Virus genome (UHGV): UHGV-0334473
DNA from: a virus
Length of the DNA stretch: 37,645 nt
Reading direction: 5' to 3' (one strand)
The first letter of the stretch is position 1; each line of letters starts with the position of its first letter. Both the position numbers and the translations under genes were made by a program. The notes beneath the pieces were generated by a model. The model saw only the letters and a program-made list of their open reading frames with translations. It made no database searches and was not told the DNA's origin. This document shows, piece by piece, positions 21,712-26,332 of this stretch.

Positions 21712-21932
21712 ATAATAAAACGTTCGAAGTACTAAAATGGTTCGCACTGGTAATTATTCCCGCACTAGCTACTTTCGTGGGGTTAGTTGGTAAAGCGCTC
21801 AATTGGCAGTACACAGATATCTGTGTTGTCATCATTACTGGTTTTGGCGCGTTTTTAGGGAGTGTGTTGGGTGTATCAAATCGAACCTACAAAATGTTCT
21901 CGGCTGAAAGCGAAGAAGGAGGAAACAAATGA
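21708..21932 (+). CDS. holin (two TM; phi LC3-family-like)
   Basis: 74 aa, two hydrophobic helices, charged C-terminus, immediately upstream of endolysin. Confidence 0.65.
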   Translation: MNNKTFEVLKWFALVIIPALATFVGLVGKALNWQYTDICVVIITGFGAFLGSVLGVSNRTYKMFSAESEEGGNK

Positions 21933-22948
21933 AAAAGAAAATTACTATTACTGCGGTGAGCCTATTAACGGCTCTTTTTTTATTGCCAATTAACGGATTT
22001 GCCTATACTATCAACAATGAATTTAATTTGGGCCCAAACGAAGGTAGCTCACAAGTAGCAAATAATCAGTACATTTTACTGCATGAAACAGCTAATGAAA
22101 CAGCAACAGGACGCAATGAAGCGCAGTATATGCAACGTTCATGGACTAGTGCTTACACTGCTTACATTGTGGGTGATGGCGGAATTGTTTACCAAGTTGG
22201 ACAACCTGGTTATGTACAGTATGGTGCTGGTTCATATGCTAATGCCAACAGTCCTGTGCAAATCGAGTTACAACACACACATAATAAAGCAACTTTTGAA
22301 AAGAACTATAAAGCATATGTTGAATTGGCAAGAGATTCAGCAATGAAATATGGTATTCCATTAACATTGGACACTCCTTATAACCAACCAGGAATCAAAT
22401 CACATTTATGGGTAACGCAAAATATCTGGGGAGATCATACAGATCCTTACGGTTATCTTTCTGAAATGGGCGTAAGTAAAGAAAAATTAGCATATGATTT
22501 AGCTCATGGATTTACCGATGAAAATCCGACAACTTCAGATGATAAACCAGTCATTGATCCAACACGAGCTGGTGCAGCAAATCCTACGCTGACAGATGGA
22601 ACGAATCATTCTCATATTGATCAGTTTGGGGAAATAGAAAATGCAAACTTGCACGTCGCTGGCTGGCACATCGCTAACTATAAATACGAGTACATTTTTA
22701 TCATGGACTATAATACTGGGAAAGAATTAGCTAGAGTAAAAGCTGATGGAATTTATAGACCGGATGTAAATCAAGCGTATGGGACATCTGGAAATGTTGG
22801 CTATCATGTATCTTTTAACATGCGTAACTTCCCTAATAAGAAAGTCTATGTCATGATGCGGGCAACGAATGATCCAGAGGGAAACACTAAAGGCGGTGCG
22901 CAAGATTTCCATGACAAACGTTGGTATTTAAATATTCCTAAACGATAA
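21929..22948 (+). CDS. endolysin: N-acetylmuramoyl-L-alanine amidase (Amidase_2-like) with N-terminal signal peptide and C-terminal wall-binding domain
   Basis: MKKKITITAVSLLTALFLLPINGFA signal-like N-terminus; ILLHETAN...QIELQH amidase motifs. Confidence 0.75.
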   Translation: MKKKITITAVSLLTALFLLPINGFAYTINNEFNLGPNEGSSQVANNQYILLHETANETATGRNEAQYMQRSWTSAYTAYIVGDGGIVYQVGQPGYVQYGAGSYANANSPVQIELQHTHNKATFEKNYKAYVELARDSAMKYGIPLTLDTPYNQPGIKSHLWVTQNIWGDHTDPYGYLSEMGVSKEKLAYDLAHGFTDENPTTSDDKPVIDPTRAGAANPTLTDGTNHSHIDQFGEIENANLHVAGWHIANYKYEYIFIMDYNTGKELARVKADGIYRPDVNQAYGTSGNVGYHVSFNMRNFPNKKVYVMMRATNDPEGNTKGGAQDFHDKRWYLNIPKR

Positions 22949-22953
22949 AAATA

Positions 22954-22976
22954 GCTCCTCGTTGAGGAGCATTACA
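22954..22976 (+). terminator. weak terminator hairpin after endolysin (GCTCCTC-gtt-GAGGAGC)
   Basis: 7-bp GC stem, poor T-tract. Confidence 0.35.
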
Positions 22977-22984
22977 TAACTATA

Positions 22985-23014
22985 TTGACAACTATAAAAA
23001 TCATTCGATAAAAT
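22985..23014 (+). promoter_or_regulatory. sigma-A-like promoter (TTGACA-18-TAAAAT) upstream of tRNA leader
   Basis: Consensus -35 and good -10. Confidence 0.45.
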
Positions 23015-23136
23015 AGTGATGTTATCGCATATCTTCACTATCACCCATAATAGTCACACTCCAAGCTATGCGATAACAGGTTTGTTGCCACACATTCTAC
23101 TGGTTGATTGTTTATGGCTTTATGTGGCAACAACCA

Positions 23137-23210
23137 GTACCCTTAGCTCAGTTGGTCAGAGCAGACGGCTCATAACCGTCCGGTCGTAGGTTCGAGTCCT
23201 ACAGGGTACA
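23137..23210 (+). tRNA. tRNA with CAT anticodon (elongator tRNA-Met or lysidine-type tRNA-Ile2), 74 nt, no encoded CCA
   Basis: Manual cloverleaf: 7-bp acceptor GTACCCT/AGGGTAC, D arm GCTC/GAGC, anticodon stem GACGG/CCGTC with loop CTCATAA, T arm GTAGG-TTCGAGT-CCTAC; G1-C72 paired so not initiator. Confidence 0.8.
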
Positions 23211-23247: not shown

Positions 23248-23256
23248 TGGTATAAT
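23248..23256 (+). promoter_or_regulatory. extended -10 promoter (TGGTATAAT) for toxin mRNA (RNA I-like)
   Basis: Perfect TGnTATAAT about 50 nt upstream of the toxin SD. Confidence 0.5.
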
Positions 23257-23308
23257 AAAATGTCGGCTCGTCGCTTCCACAGAGATTTTCGTGGGAGGAG
23301 GTGTATGA

Positions 23309-23398
23309 TTTGTTTGAATTCACTTTGGAGCACGTGCTCTTGCCATTGTTAATTGGTTTAACTTTGGCATTATTTAGTCATTGGCTAGATAAACATTA
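23309..23398 (+). CDS. Fst/Ldr-like type I toxin peptide (29 aa: MFEFTLEHVLLPLLIGLTLALFSHWLDKH)
   Basis: TTG 8 nt after GGAGG; single TM helix plus charged tail; ALFSHWL resembles Fst-family motif; followed by intrinsic terminator. Confidence 0.55.
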
Positions 23399-23410
23399 GA
23401 GCCGACAATG

Positions 23411-23446
23411 GCGCTTACTGTTTCGCAGCGGTAAGCGTCTTTTTTT
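23411..23446 (+). terminator. intrinsic terminator of toxin mRNA (GCGCTTAC...GTAAGCGT + T7)
   Basis: 8-bp stem and T7 run. Confidence 0.65.
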
Positions 23447-23487
23447 GAAAAAGAAAAAAACACAACGTATTCGCAGGTACGTTGTGT
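23447..23487 (-). terminator. minus-strand intrinsic terminator (ACACAACGT-loop-ACGTTGTGT + U-run) serving antisense RNA and integrase
   Basis: Perfect 9-bp stem followed on the minus strand by TTTTTTTCTTTTTC. Confidence 0.6.
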
Positions 23488-23519
23488 TTATGGTGTATAT
23501 TTGTTTAAATTCACTTTCA
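23450..23519 (-). ncRNA. candidate RNA II-like antitoxin sRNA (about 65-70 nt) complementary to the toxin start region
   Basis: Minus-strand TTGACA-16-TATAAT promoter at 23526-23553; contains repeat 23499-23517 matching 23307-23325 (18/19) over the toxin start codon; ends at minus-strand terminator. Confidence 0.45.
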
Positions 23520-23573
23520 ATTATTATTATACTTGTTAAATAAATTGTGTCAATATAAAAGATATTTTTATAC

Positions 23574-23619
23574 GTGTACTAACCTATATTATCCTTCCGG
23601 AATATATAAGTTAGTACAC
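23574..23619. other. candidate attP of the serine integrase (46-bp imperfect palindrome, 19/23 symmetric positions, asymmetric centre TC)
   Basis: GTGTACTAACCTATATTATCCTTCCGGAATATATAAGTTAGTACAC lies 5 bp from the integrase stop codon. Confidence 0.5.
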
Positions 23620-23624
23620 ATAAA

Positions 23625-24977
23625 TTATATAAGGAAATTTACTGTTATATTGCCATCTGGAAATACTATTATGTTATCGATAATTGAACGCCATAATGCA
23701 TTTTTTTCTTCTTCCGAAGATTCTTTATAAATTTCATCGAATTCTTTTGATAGAATAAATTCGACATTTTTTATATCTATTTTAGCTGGCTCTACTTCAA
23801 TTTCATTTAATTCTTTCATTAAAGCTTCTCGATCTTTTTTGTATTCCTCTAAGTCTATAACTTCATTCAAGTAGGCTTTCTTCAATCTATCTAATTTATT
23901 CTCAATATTTTTCTTAATATTTTTCTTTTTAATAATCTTTGGTTGTTTTTTTGAATAGTTTATTTGTATTTGTTCAAATTTTTGTTTAGTAGCTTCAAAA
24001 ATATAACGTTCTAAATTTTTTTCGTAAAAAGCGCGCTTATTTGTGCAACGTAATTTATTATTTCTTCGTTTTACACATCTATAACAAGTCCTTTCGTATA
24101 TAGATTCTGTACCGTCTTTTTTCTTATATCTTGCTTTAATAGTTTGACCAGCTACTGATCCCTGACAGTCAGAACATTTTAATAAACCTTTAAAAATGTA
24201 ATCACGTTTTGCATTTGTTTTTAAATTTTTAGGTAAGGCTTTTTGAACAGCATAAAAAAGTTTTTTATCAATAATAGGAGGACAGTAATTTTTATTATTT
24301 CTTAATTCACCAATGTATTTTTTGTTCGTCAACATATTTTTAACACTTTGATAATCTCTAACGATTCCATACTGAGAGCCTAAATAATAAACAGTTTTTC
24401 TTAAACTACCACTAGAAAGAAAGTAGTTGAATATATCTATCACGATAGGAGCATCATCATTTATTACTAATTTCTTATTTTCTATAGAGTAGCCTAACGG
24501 AGTTTTCCCGCTTACTACTTCACCTTGTGCAATTTTATTTGCCATAACAGCTTTGATGCGTTCTGAATCAATTTGGGCTTCCAATTCAGCAAAACTCATT
24601 ACTTGTGCAATGAAAGTTCTGCCATACGCTGTAGTTGTATCATAATATTGTTGAGAAACAGCATTCCAAGAAACATTGTGTTTTTCTAAAATTTCTTGAG
24701 TGTTTAAATAATGTCGTAGATTTCTAAACCATCTATCTAATTTTGTAAATAAAATTAGATCTATTTTATTTTCTTTTACATCTTGTAATAGTTTTTGAAA
24801 TTCATCACGATTTATTTTTTGACCAGAAATACCACCGTCTACATATTCATTAACTACTTTCAAATCCTTGTGTTGTTCGATATATTCATAGAGGGTTTCT
24901 TTTTGTTCTCTAAGACTATCTCCATGTTTGGCTTGTTGTTCAGTTGATACTCTCATATATAATGCTACTCGTTTCAT
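23625..24977 (-). CDS. int: large serine recombinase (integrase)
   Basis: N-terminal resolvase catalytic motif YMRVSTEQQ; 450 aa with Cys-rich recombinase/zinc-ribbon region and C-terminal coiled coil; RBS AAGGAGA. Confidence 0.85.
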   Translation of the reverse strand: MKRVALYMRVSTEQQAKHGDSLREQKETLYEYIEQHKDLKVVNEYVDGGISGQKINRDEFQKLLQDVKENKIDLILFTKLDRWFRNLRHYLNTQEILEKHNVSWNAVSQQYYDTTTAYGRTFIAQVMSFAELEAQIDSERIKAVMANKIAQGEVVSGKTPLGYSIENKKLVINDDAPIVIDIFNYFLSSGSLRKTVYYLGSQYGIVRDYQSVKNMLTNKKYIGELRNNKNYCPPIIDKKLFYAVQKALPKNLKTNAKRDYIFKGLLKCSDCQGSVAGQTIKARYKKKDGTESIYERTCYRCVKRRNNKLRCTNKRAFYEKNLERYIFEATKQKFEQIQINYSKKQPKIIKKKNIKKNIENKLDRLKKAYLNEVIDLEEYKKDREALMKELNEIEVEPAKIDIKNVEFILSKEFDEIYKESSEEEKNALWRSIIDNIIVFPDGNITVNFLI

Positions 24978-25042: not shown

Positions 25043-26332
25043 CTACACATCTGTTAATTCTAATGATCTTCTGTATTGTTCAGCTTGAGCTAGTTTAGTA
25101 AAAGATACAGTTCCGTTATAATTTTCTAAAACAACTTTTTCAATTTCATCAAGAGATACTTTAAAGAATTCTTTTCGTTGATTAACTTTATTGACTTCGT
25201 TTTTTCTAAAATGCGAATGTAGTTGATTTTCTAATGTTGGTGCATCTTCTGAAAATATCATTGCATGAACATCAAATTCAAAAGGTACAGAAGCGCTACT
25301 AAGTTCCTTAATTCTATCCATAGGTTCTAACCGTCTAGTCATTCCTATTTTATAGACATCTTCACCGAAAGATCCGATATTACTGATGACATAAACATAG
25401 CCAGCTCTAGTATTAAGTTCTCTTTGCAATACATCTTCTTTGACAGTTTCTAGTTCTCTTAATTTCTCTTCCAGTTCTTTAATTTTATCAGCATAGAGTT
25501 CTTTTTCAACATCAGCACTAGCTTTTTGCATGTATGCCATTAACTTAGTTATCTCTGAGTTAAACTGTCGTTCTTCTTTATCAATGCGTTTCTTTTCACG
25601 TTCTATTTCACGTCTTACCTTTTCTTCTTCAATCATTTGTTCTTTTATTGCTTTTTGCTGTTCTTTTTCATCGTTAACTTTAACTATGTATGAATAGTTG
25701 AGTTCTAATTCTTGAAGTTTTAATTCAAGTAATTCTTTTTTGAATTCTGCTTCATCGTTTTTAAAAAGCTTGTTTATTTTATCAAAAGTTCTTATAATTT
25801 TTTCTCTAGTTGAATCTACGTTAGAAATAGTAAGTTTATTGAGAAGTCCAGTTATTTCTGATTCTAATGGTATAAGCATTTTCTTTTTAATATTATTAGC
25901 TTCTCTATTATTCAAATAAGAAGGAATATTAATTGCACCGTCTAAAATAAAATCCTTTTCTTTAATCTTTAATAAAGAAAGTTTGTTTTTTATTTCGGAT
26001 GAAGAAGTTTCATCTATATTCGGAATAATTACTGATTTATAGATAGTGACCAGAGATGTGTCATATTTTTGATTAATTTCATCGTCTAACCGCTGGCTTT
26101 CAGCATTAAGAATATCAATTTTGTTTTCTAGCGTTGACAAGTTTTTATTCAATTTACTTATGTTTTTCTCTTTTTCAGATATAAACGTTTCCCTAGCATT
26201 TAATTCTTGAGAATATTCCTTTACCTTACTCTCTAAGGCAGAAGTTTTATCTTTTAATTTTTTAGCTTCAGATAATTTGCTACTACCCATAATTATTAAA
26301 ACTATTCCAACTAAAAACAATAGTACTCCCAT
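25043..26332 (-). CDS. membrane-anchored coiled-coil protein with C-terminal T5orf172 (GIY-YIG-like) domain, DUF4041-type architecture; moron between int and repressor
   Basis: N-terminal TM helix, about 280 aa of heptad-rich sequence, C-terminal AGYVYVISN...YKIGMTRRLEPMDRIKELSSASVPFEFDVH...LHSHF...KEFFKV matching T5orf172 consensus. Confidence 0.65.
   Translation of the reverse strand: MGVLLFLVGIVLIIMGSSKLSEAKKLKDKTSALESKVKEYSQELNARETFISEKEKNISKLNKNLSTLENKIDILNAESQRLDDEINQKYDTSLVTIYKSVIIPNIDETSSSEIKNKLSLLKIKEKDFILDGAINIPSYLNNREANNIKKKMLIPLESEITGLLNKLTISNVDSTREKIIRTFDKINKLFKNDEAEFKKELLELKLQELELNYSYIVKVNDEKEQQKAIKEQMIEEEKVRREIEREKKRIDKEERQFNSEITKLMAYMQKASADVEKELYADKIKELEEKLRELETVKEDVLQRELNTRAGYVYVISNIGSFGEDVYKIGMTRRLEPMDRIKELSSASVPFEFDVHAMIFSEDAPTLENQLHSHFRKNEVNKVNQRKEFFKVSLDEIEKVVLENYNGTVSFTKLAQAEQYRRSLELTDV

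Follow-up and report, generated by a model that had tools for sequence, protein, structure and literature searches.

A putative par-family (Fst) type I toxin-antitoxin cassette beside the attachment site of an Enterococcus temperate phage

The question raised by positions 23248-23553 of UHGV-0334473 is whether these ~306 bp constitute a par-family (Fst) type I toxin-antitoxin cassette, as had been proposed in a sequence-only reading of the window (i.e. the whole stretch of 37,645 nucleotides that was analyzed). We consider this very probable; the mechanism outlined below is taken by analogy from pAD1 par. The proposal is supported in silico by all of its sequence elements, by the family membership of the toxin (a pass of the NCBIfam model NF033608), by an order of parts shared with six reference par loci, by the Rfam model RF02844 as best match of the antitoxin RNA, and by complementarities whose repeats co-vary between alleles. 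Every element previously listed was found, with coordinates that were either exact or at most 1 nt off. The family is already well known, and has been reported on phages before (PMC7472228, PMC2887945); the present locus is an ordinary member of it, with a 29-residue membrane toxin and a small silencing antisense RNA.

The reference set consisted of six par loci from enterococcal plasmids, which were compared directly with the locus. Common to these loci and the cassette are, in order, an extended -10, a 5' upstream helix, a stem-loop sequestering the Shine-Dalgarno (SD) sequence, start-codon repeats, the toxin ORF, hairpin 1, hairpin 2, the repeat copies and a convergent promoter.

The toxin gene and its mRNA

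The toxin mRNA, here called RNA I after its pAD1 counterpart, comprises the following features.

23248..23256, plus strand: RNA I promoter, an extended -10 (TGGTATAAT) without a recognisable -35; activity predicted from sequence
23262..23446, plus strand: predicted RNA I, the toxin mRNA (~185 nt), with its start placed +6/+7 from the -10 and its end at the T7 tract
23262..23269, plus strand: 5' arm (GUCGGCUC) of the 5' upstream helix (5'-UH), predicted to pair with 23399-23406
23274..23297, plus strand: 5' stem-loop (5'-SL), in which the anti-SD CUUCCAC (23274-23280) pairs with GUGGGAG (23291-23297); predicted to sequester the SD
23293..23301, plus strand: Shine-Dalgarno sequence (GGGAGGAGG), 8 nt from GGAGG to the TTG start
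23310..23399, plus strand: toxin ORF of the Fst family, TTG start, 29 aa (MFEFTLEHVLLPLLIGLTLALFSHWLDKH), stop codon TAG at 23397-23399
23399..23406, plus strand: 3' arm (GAGCCGAC) of the 5'-UH, whose first base is the last base of the stop codon
23410..23446, plus strand: hairpin 1 and T7, the intrinsic terminator of RNA I (13-bp stem at 23410-23439, -17.4 kcal/mol)

The ORF yields exactly the 29-aa peptide quoted earlier, and the SD and TTG start (at 23310) claimed for it are both in place. The suggested check against toxin families was positive: the peptide passes NF033608 (type_I_tox_Fst) by a narrow margin (27.3 bits against a cutoff of 26, E = 2.3e-6), and NCBI names the identical peptide, as well as its relatives, "Fst family toxin". 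The sole Pfam match, to positions 7-21 of the 21 in PF13955 (Fst_toxin), stays below the gathering score (19.2 bits against 36, E = 0.0012). Identity to the six plasmid Fst peptides is 29-48%, and P12, G16, L17, L26 and D27 are invariant across the alignment. The first two of these delimit the PXXXG motif (P12-L-L-I-G16), which in the family is defined as P/D/S/T-XXX-G(C) in a hydrophobic helix (PMC7472228). The tryptophan between the helix and the charged C-terminus, a signature of the family (PMC2887945, PMC7472228), is present as W25 and is followed by L-D-K-H; the peptide has SHWLD in common with the toxins of L012 and L013. The C-terminal tail is unusually short, with DKH as its only three charged or ionisable residues. 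Searching 50,697 phage records with the peptide by tblastn returned nothing at E <= 10, PHROGs gave no match, and PADLOC had no model matching it. A third toxin sub-type (MHFVFEHV..., 28 aa) was absent from the viral contigs in a degenerate search. An in-frame GTG at 23301 would yield a 32-aa form but overlaps the SD, and no such sequence is on record.

The extended -10 agrees with the toxin promoter proposed before and is kept in relatives, where its TGn is found as TGG, TGC or TGT in every case although the flanks differ; its placement is that of TGCTATAAT in the reference par loci. By itself it is not significant, because TGNTATAAT sites occur four times in the window against 2.9 expected. 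No plus-strand terminator is found between the tRNA, with its promoter at 22985-23014, and RNA I, which would allow read-through to give longer transcripts whose 5' end differs.

When folded between the ends that we infer from promoter and terminator, RNA I has an MFE of -75.2 kcal/mol (z = -7.87; none of 200 dinucleotide shuffles was as stable). The 5'-UH prediction depends on the placement of the transcription start; its pairing is retained in the E. hirae locus L021, and a pairing of the 5' end with bases past the stop codon, unrelated in sequence, also occurs in the MFE of four of the six reference RNA I sequences. The 5'-SL pairing is present in both the MFE and the centroid structure, and one-sided changes in relatives (U.G to U-A, G-C to G.U) preserve it. 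The SD of the reference RNA I sequences is paired as well, to nt 10-13. Among seven close relatives, pair counts revealed no double compensatory change inside the RNA I helices, which is uninformative either way on the fold because these sequences have diverged too little. RF02848 (RefB11), the Rfam model of par RNA I, matched only partially and below its gathering score (10.9 bits, E = 7.6, 246 nt searched).

An intrinsic terminator for the toxin mRNA is also in place, as proposed; it consists of a 13-bp stem followed by T7. The apical motif UUCGCAG of its hairpin (23422-23428) contains the YUNR sequence UUCG (23422-23425), while in the MFE structure only UCGC is unpaired. A YUNR motif is not present in all par homologues (PMC7472228).

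The antitoxin RNA and its contact sites

The putative antitoxin, RNA II, is read in the opposite direction from the far end of the cassette.

23526..23553, minus strand: RNA II promoter, TTGACA-16-TATAAT, a 12/12 consensus match in the promoter scan
23451..23518, minus strand: predicted RNA II, the antitoxin sRNA (~68 nt), with a 5' tail that is largely unstructured in the fold and complementary to the toxin start region, then a terminator hairpin
23458..23489, minus strand: hairpin 2, the RNA II terminator, with a 12-bp stem, a downstream U tract and a loop (CCUGCGAA) complementary to the UUCGCAG of hairpin 1
23300..23326, plus strand: direct-repeat copy 1, the DRa/DRb equivalent and predicted RNA II target, spanning the SD 3' end, TTG and codons 2-6
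23492..23517, plus strand: direct-repeat copy 2, read from the minus strand as the RNA II 5' end; invariant in close relatives

The minus-strand promoter reported earlier was recovered at 23553-23526, and no other perfect consensus exists in the 37.6-kb window (0.04 expected). Its substitutions in relatives all fall in the spacer and none in the hexamers. A transcript of ~65 nt had been expected from it; from the positions of promoter and terminator we predict ~68 nt (~23518 to ~23451), ending at the second, back-to-back terminator that the sequence-only reading described, i.e. the minus-strand hairpin at 23489-23458 with its U tract. RNA II is nearly invariant among close relatives. Its best Rfam match in a search of 801 nt is RF02844 (RefA9), which is covered over its full length (1-64/64) at a score below the gathering score (30.5 bits against 49, E = 0.014). 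We identify this model with par RNA II, as it marks a 64-nt minus-strand RNA just 3' of fst in the reference par loci, with up to 88 bits, and it is named after the par intergenic region of pTEF1 (PMC4408782, PMC3166299). Two of the plasmid references also score below 49 (45.1 and 37.3 bits), and another two have no minus-strand match at E <= 0.1. In the Rfam alignment, hairpin 2 corresponds to the bidirectional terminator of the reference loci.

Regarding the 19-nt direct repeat that had been noted, the 18/19 match and the position of copy 2 (23499-23517) hold, while copy 1 lies at 23308-23326, 1 nt from where it was placed. The repeat is also longer than noted, as GGTGTAT (23300-23306, identical to 23492-23498) precedes the 19-nt block with a single bulged G23307 in between. 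Consequently, ~27 nt are complementary between RNA I and RNA II, and the sole mismatch becomes a G.U pair in the duplex. Substitutions of copy 1 in relatives are located at the bulged G23307 and at the flanking position 23327. Within the window the repeat is found nowhere else at up to 3 mismatches; other RNA II targets in the phage were rejected on this ground. A second shared motif, TTCGCAG, recurs in the loop at the apex of each terminator hairpin (23422-23428 in hairpin 1, 23470-23476 in hairpin 2), an arrangement seen in 87 out of 20000 shuffles.

Duplex prediction, which had been suggested as a check on the start region and the antisense RNA, gave -32.6 kcal/mol for the start region with the RNA II 5' end, against -33.6 for the pAD1-type reference. 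For full-length RNA I with RNA II the duplex reaches -44 kcal/mol, whereas shuffled RNA II gives -26 +/- 3.6 and none of 1000 shuffles attained the observed value. Since the MFE loop of hairpin 1 is only 4 nt, the two loops can pair only if the U-A and U.G pairs at the top of this hairpin open.

The RNA I/RNA II layout of pAD1, to which the locus had been compared, stands with respect to the convergent promoters and the direct repeats. The terminators are adjacent, but the shared bidirectional terminator of canonical par is absent. Hairpins 1 and 2 are separate and each is followed, on the strand that it terminates, by a U tract; since hairpin 1 has its own T7 terminator, RNA I and RNA II should not overlap. 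In all six reference loci hairpin 1 is instead followed by an A run, so that transcription of the reference RNA I must continue as far as hairpin 2, which both RNAs use there as a bidirectional terminator.

By analogy with pAD1 par, the cassette would operate as follows. RNA I, transcribed from the extended -10 promoter, would encode a toxin with a single membrane-spanning helix. Nascent or free RNA I would be translationally silent because the 5' stem-loop pairs the SD with the upstream anti-SD, and the helix between its 5' extremity and the bases just past the stop codon would shield it against decay. RNA II, transcribed convergently from the perfect consensus promoter, would make first contact through its terminator loop (CUGCGAA) with the YUNR-containing hairpin loop of RNA I (UUCGCAG). 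Its unstructured 5' tail may then zip onto the 27 nt covering the SD end, the TTG start and the first codons, by which ribosome binding would be blocked. If the supply of RNA II ended, either by loss of the element or by a shut-off of host transcription, RNA II would decay faster than RNA I, and the toxin would be translated and the cell arrested or killed. We infer the order of the pairing steps and the difference in RNA stability, like the toxicity itself, from the family.

Diverged alleles and genomic distribution

The strongest evidence for the par reading is a diverged E. hirae allele. We refer to the type found in the window as A and to that of E. hirae L021 and L024 as B. While B is 91% identical to the window in the 5' UTR, 88% in the rest of the ORF and 86% in the RNA II promoter, both of its repeat copies are only 50-55% identical to the window copies, yet they match each other. 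Cognate duplexes are predicted at -32.6 and -30.9 kcal/mol, against -19.1 and -9.7 for the non-cognate combinations. Furthermore, both hairpin loops change together in L021, from TTCGCAG to ATTCACAGT. Such concerted change of two repeats and two loops requires selection on pairing. A chance ORF accompanied by a chance repeat was rejected because of the shuffle controls and this co-variation. An E. faecium variant (L004, from assembly GCA_001545545.1) carries three substitutions in repeat copy 1, including C at the equivalents of 23314 and 23318, on a contig that stops short of RNA II. When viral contigs were searched with a degenerate pattern for an RNA II matching it, the window's own type was the only one returned. 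The single bidirectional terminator occurs in L022, which is more remotely related.

In the phage context and no fewer than four others, relatives are homologous from the RNA I -10 to the RNA II -35. The cassette is self-contained, bounded promoter to promoter, and occurs in at least five genomic contexts. Across these contexts and both alleles, every copy has an intact ORF and SD, intact hexamers in both promoters, and intact hairpins and repeats; the promoter hexamers are never substituted while the spacers are. This integrity speaks against the cassette being a decaying or inactive remnant, whose short-tailed peptide is no longer toxic and whose repeats were left by duplication. We find that idea hardly credible: the below-threshold Pfam and Rfam scores, the tail of only DKH and unpublished data on charged-tail truncations of Fst that lower toxicity (cited in PMC7472228) lend it something, but repeats and loops changing in concert call for selection on pairing, the reference plasmid toxin of L014 also ends shortly after WLDD, and published mutagenesis found truncated Fst still toxic (PMC7472228).

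The carrier is proposed to be a temperate phage of Enterococcus faecium/hirae, with the cassette as accessory cargo between the lysis genes/tRNA and attP. In L005, a junction between an E. hirae prophage and its host, the homology ends in the center of the inverted repeat 23571-23622 and is followed by a radC 3' fragment. This places attP 20 bp beyond the cassette, and the cassette consequently at the prophage end opposite the integrase, as the sequence-only reading had it. Other neighborhoods vary. In L010 the cassette is situated between a response-regulator gene and a serine recombinase, and the B allele adjoins an Abi_2 gene in L024 and a SocA_Panacea gene in L021. The window prophage itself has a PD-Lambda-1 homologue (E = 1e-114) beside the integrase, and an abortive-infection gene is annotated in the corresponding slot of the related phage IME197, downstream of the homologous tRNA. 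No Fst-like ORF follows the homologous tRNA in the related phages L002 and L017-L020; tRNA and cassette are therefore not a fixed unit. By blastn, only the tRNA of the region was matched in phages, and plasmids gave one identical copy.

The position relative to the lysis genes could also be read differently, with the peptide as a lysis accessory (holin-like or a membrane depolariser) produced by late read-through from the lysis/tRNA unit and silenced by RNA II in the lysogen. The ORF is indeed on the late-gene strand, with 360 bp between it and the endolysin gene upstream (21929-22948); the hairpin that follows this gene (22954-22970) carries a T tract on the minus strand only, the tRNA and RNA I are not separated by a plus-strand terminator, and type I toxins have been noted as holin-like (PMC2887945). 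We nevertheless regard this as very improbable, given that the cassette has its own promoters, that it occurs intact away from lysis genes (in L010 and beside Abi_2 and SocA_Panacea), and that close phages with the same endolysin and tRNA are without it.

Relation to known systems and possible role

The closest known systems are pAD1 par and the pTEF1/pTEF2-type homologues of E. faecalis, with the same order of elements and the same predicted RNA I folds (5'-UH, and 5'-SL over the SD). They likewise have a convergent RNA II of ~65 nt, start-codon repeats of ~-33 kcal/mol and two hairpins after the ORF. The PXXXG toxin and the hairpin-1 loop motif UCGCA are common to them and the locus (reference loops (G/U)UCGCA(A/G)), and the core of the first repeat and its RNA II complement (ACAAAUA.CAC) are partly shared even at the nucleotide level. 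In the present locus, however, loop complementarity comes from a duplicated loop motif rather than from a shared terminator, both repeats have merged into one 27-nt stretch interrupted by a single bulge, TTG takes the place of GTG as start codon, and the C-terminal tail is much shorter. Moreover, the locus is carried by a temperate phage, whereas pAD1-type par is on a conjugative plasmid.

Other members can be likened to it to varying degrees. The paralogue par_EF0409 of the E. faecalis chromosome coexists with plasmid par and parallels the orthogonal A and B alleles described here; by its description it belongs to the core genome, between mannitol PTS operons, and has a bidirectional terminator (PMC7472228). 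It gives no cross-protection with plasmid par, which is attributed to divergent DRa/DRb (PMC7472228). In Fst-Sm/srSm of Streptococcus mutans, mRNA and sRNA also converge across repeats (DRI/DRII) overlapping the start codon, with an AP-hydrophobic-G toxin motif (PMC3543317); it differs in its single bidirectional terminator and chromosomal intergenic location, and its AP..(A/V)G corresponds to LP..IG in the window peptide. Again by description, SprA1/SprA1AS (PepA1) of Staphylococcus aureus combines an Fst-family toxin with a mobile element. The SprA1 and SprA1AS genes overlap at their 3' ends, and SprA1AS acts via its non-overlapping 5' domain on the toxin start region. The SprA1 toxin has a Cys-containing motif, PXXXG(C) (PMC7472228). 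Type I modules on prophages or prophage-like elements are likewise described for Bacillus subtilis, namely bsrG/SR4 and yonT/SR6 (both on SPbeta) and txpA/RatA (skin) (PMC5848175, PMC3834814). The toxin families of these systems are unrelated, and their cis-antisense antitoxins overlap the toxin 3' ends and largely promote mRNA decay.

For the Fst family, no function beyond plasmid stabilisation has been verified (PMC7472228). By analogy, the role of the phage cassette is most likely addiction, i.e. stabilising the prophage or its circular form, with abortive-infection defence as the alternative. One broader conjecture, which we put forward tentatively and regard as rather doubtful, concerns the sub-clade formed by the window, L021 and L024. 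This would be a fully trans-acting par variant with its own RNA I terminator, in which no DNA is common to the two RNAs and both contact sites (loop to loop, and 5' tail to start region) derive only from duplicated motifs that diversify in parallel into orthogonal alleles; the cassette would have spread among the end slots of prophages and integrative elements beside defence genes, and would act as an abortive-infection or anti-curing device and not in plasmid-type addiction.

That the cassette serves mainly as prophage-encoded abortive infection against other phages appears unlikely to us. Superinfection would then stop host or prophage transcription, the short-lived RNA II would be lost, and the toxin would kill the cell before progeny release. 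The accessory slots adjoining defence-type genes (the PD-Lambda-1 homologue, Abi_2, SocA_Panacea and the IME197 slot) fit such a function, and hok/sok has reportedly been seen to exclude T4, but in a cargo hotspot little weight attaches to neighboring defence genes, and PADLOC is without a model for the peptide.

The value of the finding lies mainly in annotation: the toxin is named automatically in related genomes, while no record examined carries annotation for the antitoxin RNA, the promoters or the pairing sites. The split-terminator layout suggests that a shared bidirectional terminator may be dispensable in par if loop complementarity is retained. The window and L021 alleles, differing almost only in the two contact sites, amount to a natural experiment on the evolution of antisense specificity in par. 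Lastly, with attP 20 bp away and a recurrence beside defence genes, the cassette is a reasonable candidate in which roles of Fst in prophage stabilisation or phage exclusion may be sought.

Cassette elements and predicted pairing of the two RNAs

A sequence-only reading had proposed a par/Fst-like type I toxin-antitoxin locus at 23248-23553, between a tRNA and the integrase. The elements of this cassette are listed below, with RNA I denoting the predicted plus-strand toxin mRNA and RNA II the predicted minus-strand antitoxin RNA.

Elements of the cassette
23248-23256, plus strand: extended -10 promoter of RNA I, TGGTATAAT; activity predicted
23293-23301, plus strand: strong Shine-Dalgarno (SD) sequence, GGGAGGAGG
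23310, plus strand: TTG start codon of the toxin, 8 nt 3' of GGAGG
23310-23399, plus strand: toxin ORF of 29 codons, product MFEFTLEHVLLPLLIGLTLALFSHWLDKH, stop codon TAG at 23397-23399
23410-23446, plus strand: hairpin 1, 13 bp, followed by T7 (terminator scan)
23489-23458, minus strand: hairpin 2, 12 bp, followed by a U tract (terminator scan)
23553-23526, minus strand: RNA II promoter TTGACA-16-TATAAT, perfect consensus

The proposed minus-strand promoter is present, and no other promoter in the 37.6-kb window fits the consensus perfectly (0.04 such matches expected); its position and that of the terminator hairpin predict an RNA II of ~68 nt. The 19-nt direct repeat of the start region is also real, with 18 of 19 positions matching, although its first copy had been placed 1 nt off (23308-23326, against 23499-23517 for the second). 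Upstream, the repeat extends across one bulged G by GGTGTAT (23300-23306 and 23492-23498). In this way, RNA II could base-pair over ~27 nt with the toxin mRNA, from the end of the SD through the start codon and codons 2-6, with a G.U pair at the one mismatched position. No further copies of the repeat were found in the window.

Duplex prediction between the start region and the antisense transcript, as suggested along with the original proposal, gave -32.6 kcal/mol, compared to -33.6 in a pAD1-type reference. The full RNA I/RNA II duplex (-44 kcal/mol) was more stable than any formed with 1000 dinucleotide-shuffled RNA II sequences (mean -26, sd 3.6). Furthermore, the 7-mer TTCGCAG is duplicated in both hairpin apices (23422-23428 and 23470-23476; 87 of 20000 shuffles), so that the apex of hairpin 1 in RNA I has its complement in the RNA II loop CCUGCGAA. 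This apex includes a YUNR sequence, UUCG, and has only 4 nt unpaired in the minimum free energy (MFE) structure.

RNA I itself has an exceptionally stable predicted fold (-75.2 kcal/mol, z = -7.87). Its first 8 nt (23262-23269) are predicted to pair, as a 5' upstream helix, with GAGCCGAC (23399-23406), an arm whose first nt is the final one of the stop codon, while CUUCCAC (23274-23280) would form a 5' stem-loop with the SD segment GUGGGAG (23291-23297). Both features recur in the MFE folds of reference RNA I molecules (the upstream helix in 4 of 6), at the same relative positions and in unrelated sequences. The predicted fold thus carries the hallmarks of par, despite Rfam not detecting the RNA I family RF02848 on the window RNA I.

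Relationship to the Fst/par family

When the peptide was compared with Fst-type families, as the sequence-only reading had suggested, it narrowly passed the NCBIfam model NF033608 (type_I_tox_Fst; 27.3 vs. a cutoff of 26). Fst_toxin was the only Pfam match, at 19.2 bits, under the gathering score of 36. The identical 29-aa sequence is already named "type I toxin-antitoxin system Fst family toxin" at NCBI, and the E. faecium and E. hirae relatives in its 90% cluster are likewise named Fst family toxin. Its identity to six aligned Fst peptides of enterococcal plasmids is 29-48%, with P12, G16, L17, L26 and D27 invariant throughout, and W25 occupies the position of the conserved family Trp. Published family signatures are PXXXG and a Trp placed after the helix and before the charged tail (PMC7472228, PMC2887945); the C-terminal tail is here short, DKH.

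The six corresponding plasmid par loci were collected by tblastn with an Fst query peptide, the best records being at least 97% identical. [quoted passage not shown] RNA I. RefA9 takes its name from the efa0080-81 intergenic region of pTEF1 (PMC4408782), which is a par locus according to Shioya et al. (PMC3166299). On the window, RF02844 was the best non-tRNA Rfam match in the region, with a full-length alignment on the minus strand at 23458-23524 (30.5 bits, E = 0.014; gathering score 49). A score below threshold is expected in a diverged member, since the same holds for two of the six plasmid references (45.1 and 37.3 bits) and another two had no minus-strand RF02844 match at E <= 0.1.

The layout of convergent predicted RNAs that become complementary through repeats, claimed as that of pAD1 par, was confirmed at the sequence level, whereas the terminators differ. 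Like the window, the reference loci have two hairpins 3' of the ORF, but there an A run follows the first, and the second has A and T runs on its two sides and acts as the known bidirectional terminator. Hairpin 1 of the window instead has its own T7 tract, and RNA I should therefore end there, without overlapping the RNA II gene. In par, the loop-loop complementarity that initiates the interaction arises from the shared terminator (PMC7472228), in contrast to the duplicated 7-mer seen here. A more distant relative (L022, toxin 56% identical) has a single bidirectional terminator, as in classical par.

All six reference loci (L011-L016, ~620-680) have a conserved loop, (G/U)UCGCA(A/G), in the first hairpin, before the bidirectional terminator. 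In L013 and L016, as read by eye, the same 6-mer occurs in this loop and in that of the terminator. A role of the first hairpin in RNA II recognition is not discussed in the cited par literature.

Relatives and concerted change at the proposed contact sites

Pattern scans and exact-protein look-ups identified near-identical copies in four phage-type records (L001, L003, L008, L009), at one prophage-host junction in E. hirae (L005) and in other contexts (L006, L007, L010). In a multiple alignment, homology begins at the RNA I -10 and stops at the RNA II -35 wherever the flanks differ. Among close relatives, all substitutions in the RNA II promoter are in the spacer, and of the two in repeat copy 1, one affects the bulged base and the other a position immediately beyond the duplex. 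Within the RNA I helices, every change is confined to one side and leaves the pair intact; double compensations are absent, and this set is uninformative on the fold. In a truncated E. faecium copy (L004, GCA_001545545.1, 2962-3127), repeat copy 1 differs by three substitutions, equivalent to 23314 T>C, 23318 A>C and 23327 G>C. The peptide is altered by all of them (LFEFTL to LSDFTF), and two would mismatch the standard RNA II. The contig ends inside hairpin 1, before RNA II.

A phmmer search of 1.84 billion representatives added three further relatives, two in Enterococcus clusters named Fst family toxin and the third, P0010 from a metagenome, without a name.

The loci of these relatives were the most informative, above all two in E. 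hirae, L021 and L024, whose identity to the window is 91% in the promoter and 5' UTR, 88% in the rest of the ORF and 86% in the RNA II promoter. Their repeat copies are both only 50-55% identical to the window copies, yet match each other. Cognate duplexes reach -32.6 (window) and -30.9 kcal/mol (L021), against -19.1 and -9.7 for the two non-cognate combinations. Both hairpin loops have switched jointly from TTCGCAG to ATTCACAGT, the hairpin-2 stem differs in sequence but is still perfect, and the T tract 3' of hairpin 1 is retained. This is a concerted change at both proposed contact sites, as selection on RNA-RNA pairing would predict. The divergence parallels the missing cross-protection between par of pAD1 and par_EF0409 (PMC7472228).

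Genomic context, mechanism and role

The window is the genome of an Enterococcus temperate siphophage, with its closest records in E. faecium and E. hirae.

Features flanking the cassette
21929-22948: endolysin (Amidase_2), upstream of a promoter, a structured leader, the tRNA and the cassette
23137-23210: tRNA(CAT), between leader and cassette (ARAGORN)
23571-23594 / 23599-23622: imperfect inverted repeat of 24 nt, 83% complementary, 4-nt centre, between the cassette and the recombinase 3' end
23625-24977, minus strand: large serine recombinase (integrase)

In the E. hirae junction record (L005), homology to the window spans the whole cassette and ends at the inverted-repeat centre, followed by the 3' part of radC. 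The inverted repeat at 23571-23622 is hence very probably attP, and radC the integration target. This junction bears out the expected location of the module in the lysogen, where the intact cassette lies at the end away from the integrase, ~20 bp in from the prophage boundary.

Related phages with a homologous tRNA have no Fst-like ORF in the slot 3' of it and carry other cargo instead, e.g. IS transposases in Enterococcus phage 4995_1 (L002, 3788-5529) and an annotated abortive-infection gene in IME197 (L020, 1425-2387), which marks this slot as a cargo hotspot. Other cassette copies also adjoin mobile or defence genes: the neighbors are a serine recombinase (L010), an Abi_2 gene (L024) and a SocA_Panacea gene (L021), and one copy lies downstream of a GH25 lysin (L007). 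Contig breaks fall within the cassette or exactly at its borders in three independent assemblies (L004 at 3127, L005 at 1-3, and L006, a whole contig of 306 nt), pointing to multiple copies per genome in E. hirae and E. faecium.

Several other features of the region were observed. A near-consensus promoter (TTGACA-18-TAAAAT, 11/12) at 22985-23014 precedes a ~115-nt leader with two long hairpins (~23021-23077 and ~23079-23135) directly abutting the tRNA. Leader and tRNA fold with z = -4.4, the leader is also kept in L004 and L001, and 22985-23136 had no Rfam match. ARAGORN assigned the tRNA to Met (anticodon CAT), while the 100% identical tRNA of phage 4995_1 is tRNA-Ile by tRNAscan-SE and, if so, a lysidine-type Ile2 tRNA. 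Between the integrase and an XRE-type repressor, a 429-aa ORF (25043-26332, minus strand; T5orf172/MUG113 and DUF4041 domains) matched PADLOC PD-Lambda-1 (E = 1.3e-114). The prophage thus has the toxin-antitoxin cassette at one end and a known single-gene defence system at the other. The block of tRNA, cassette, attP, integrase, PD-Lambda-1 and repressor is 99.7% identical in E. faecium pA4694_P2 (L001, NZ_CP059741.1; circular, 41,241 bp), which is classified as a plasmid, non-mobilizable and lacking a replicon type. Instead of a conventional plasmid, this record, in which neither toxin nor RNA II is annotated, probably represents a phage genome (excised or circular) or a phage-plasmid.

With the sequence elements, their complementarities and the co-variation of these established for the cassette, the best-supported mechanism is that of par, from which transcript ends, toxicity, relative stabilities and pairing order are inferred (PMC7472228). 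RNA I would initially be silent through sequestration of the SD, and stabilised by the 5' helix. RNA II, transcribed from a promoter of much greater predicted strength, would touch the RNA I hairpin loop and next pair across the start region, blocking initiation; upon loss of the RNA II supply, the toxin would be made.

As for its role, prophage or episome addiction would be the default, in analogy to related systems. Abortive-infection defence is a plausible rival, in favor of which the neighborhoods of the cassette speak. That the peptide is a lysis accessory, or the cassette a decayed remnant, is unlikely.

Fst-family loci with conserved par architecture occur in hundreds of Firmicutes genomes, phages included (PMC7472228, PMC2887945). 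The cassette is a previously uncharacterised member of this family, its peptide already auto-named by the NCBI pipeline, with a modest architectural twist in the form of separate terminators and a duplicated loop motif. Together, the window and L021/L024 alleles constitute a useful natural orthogonal pair.
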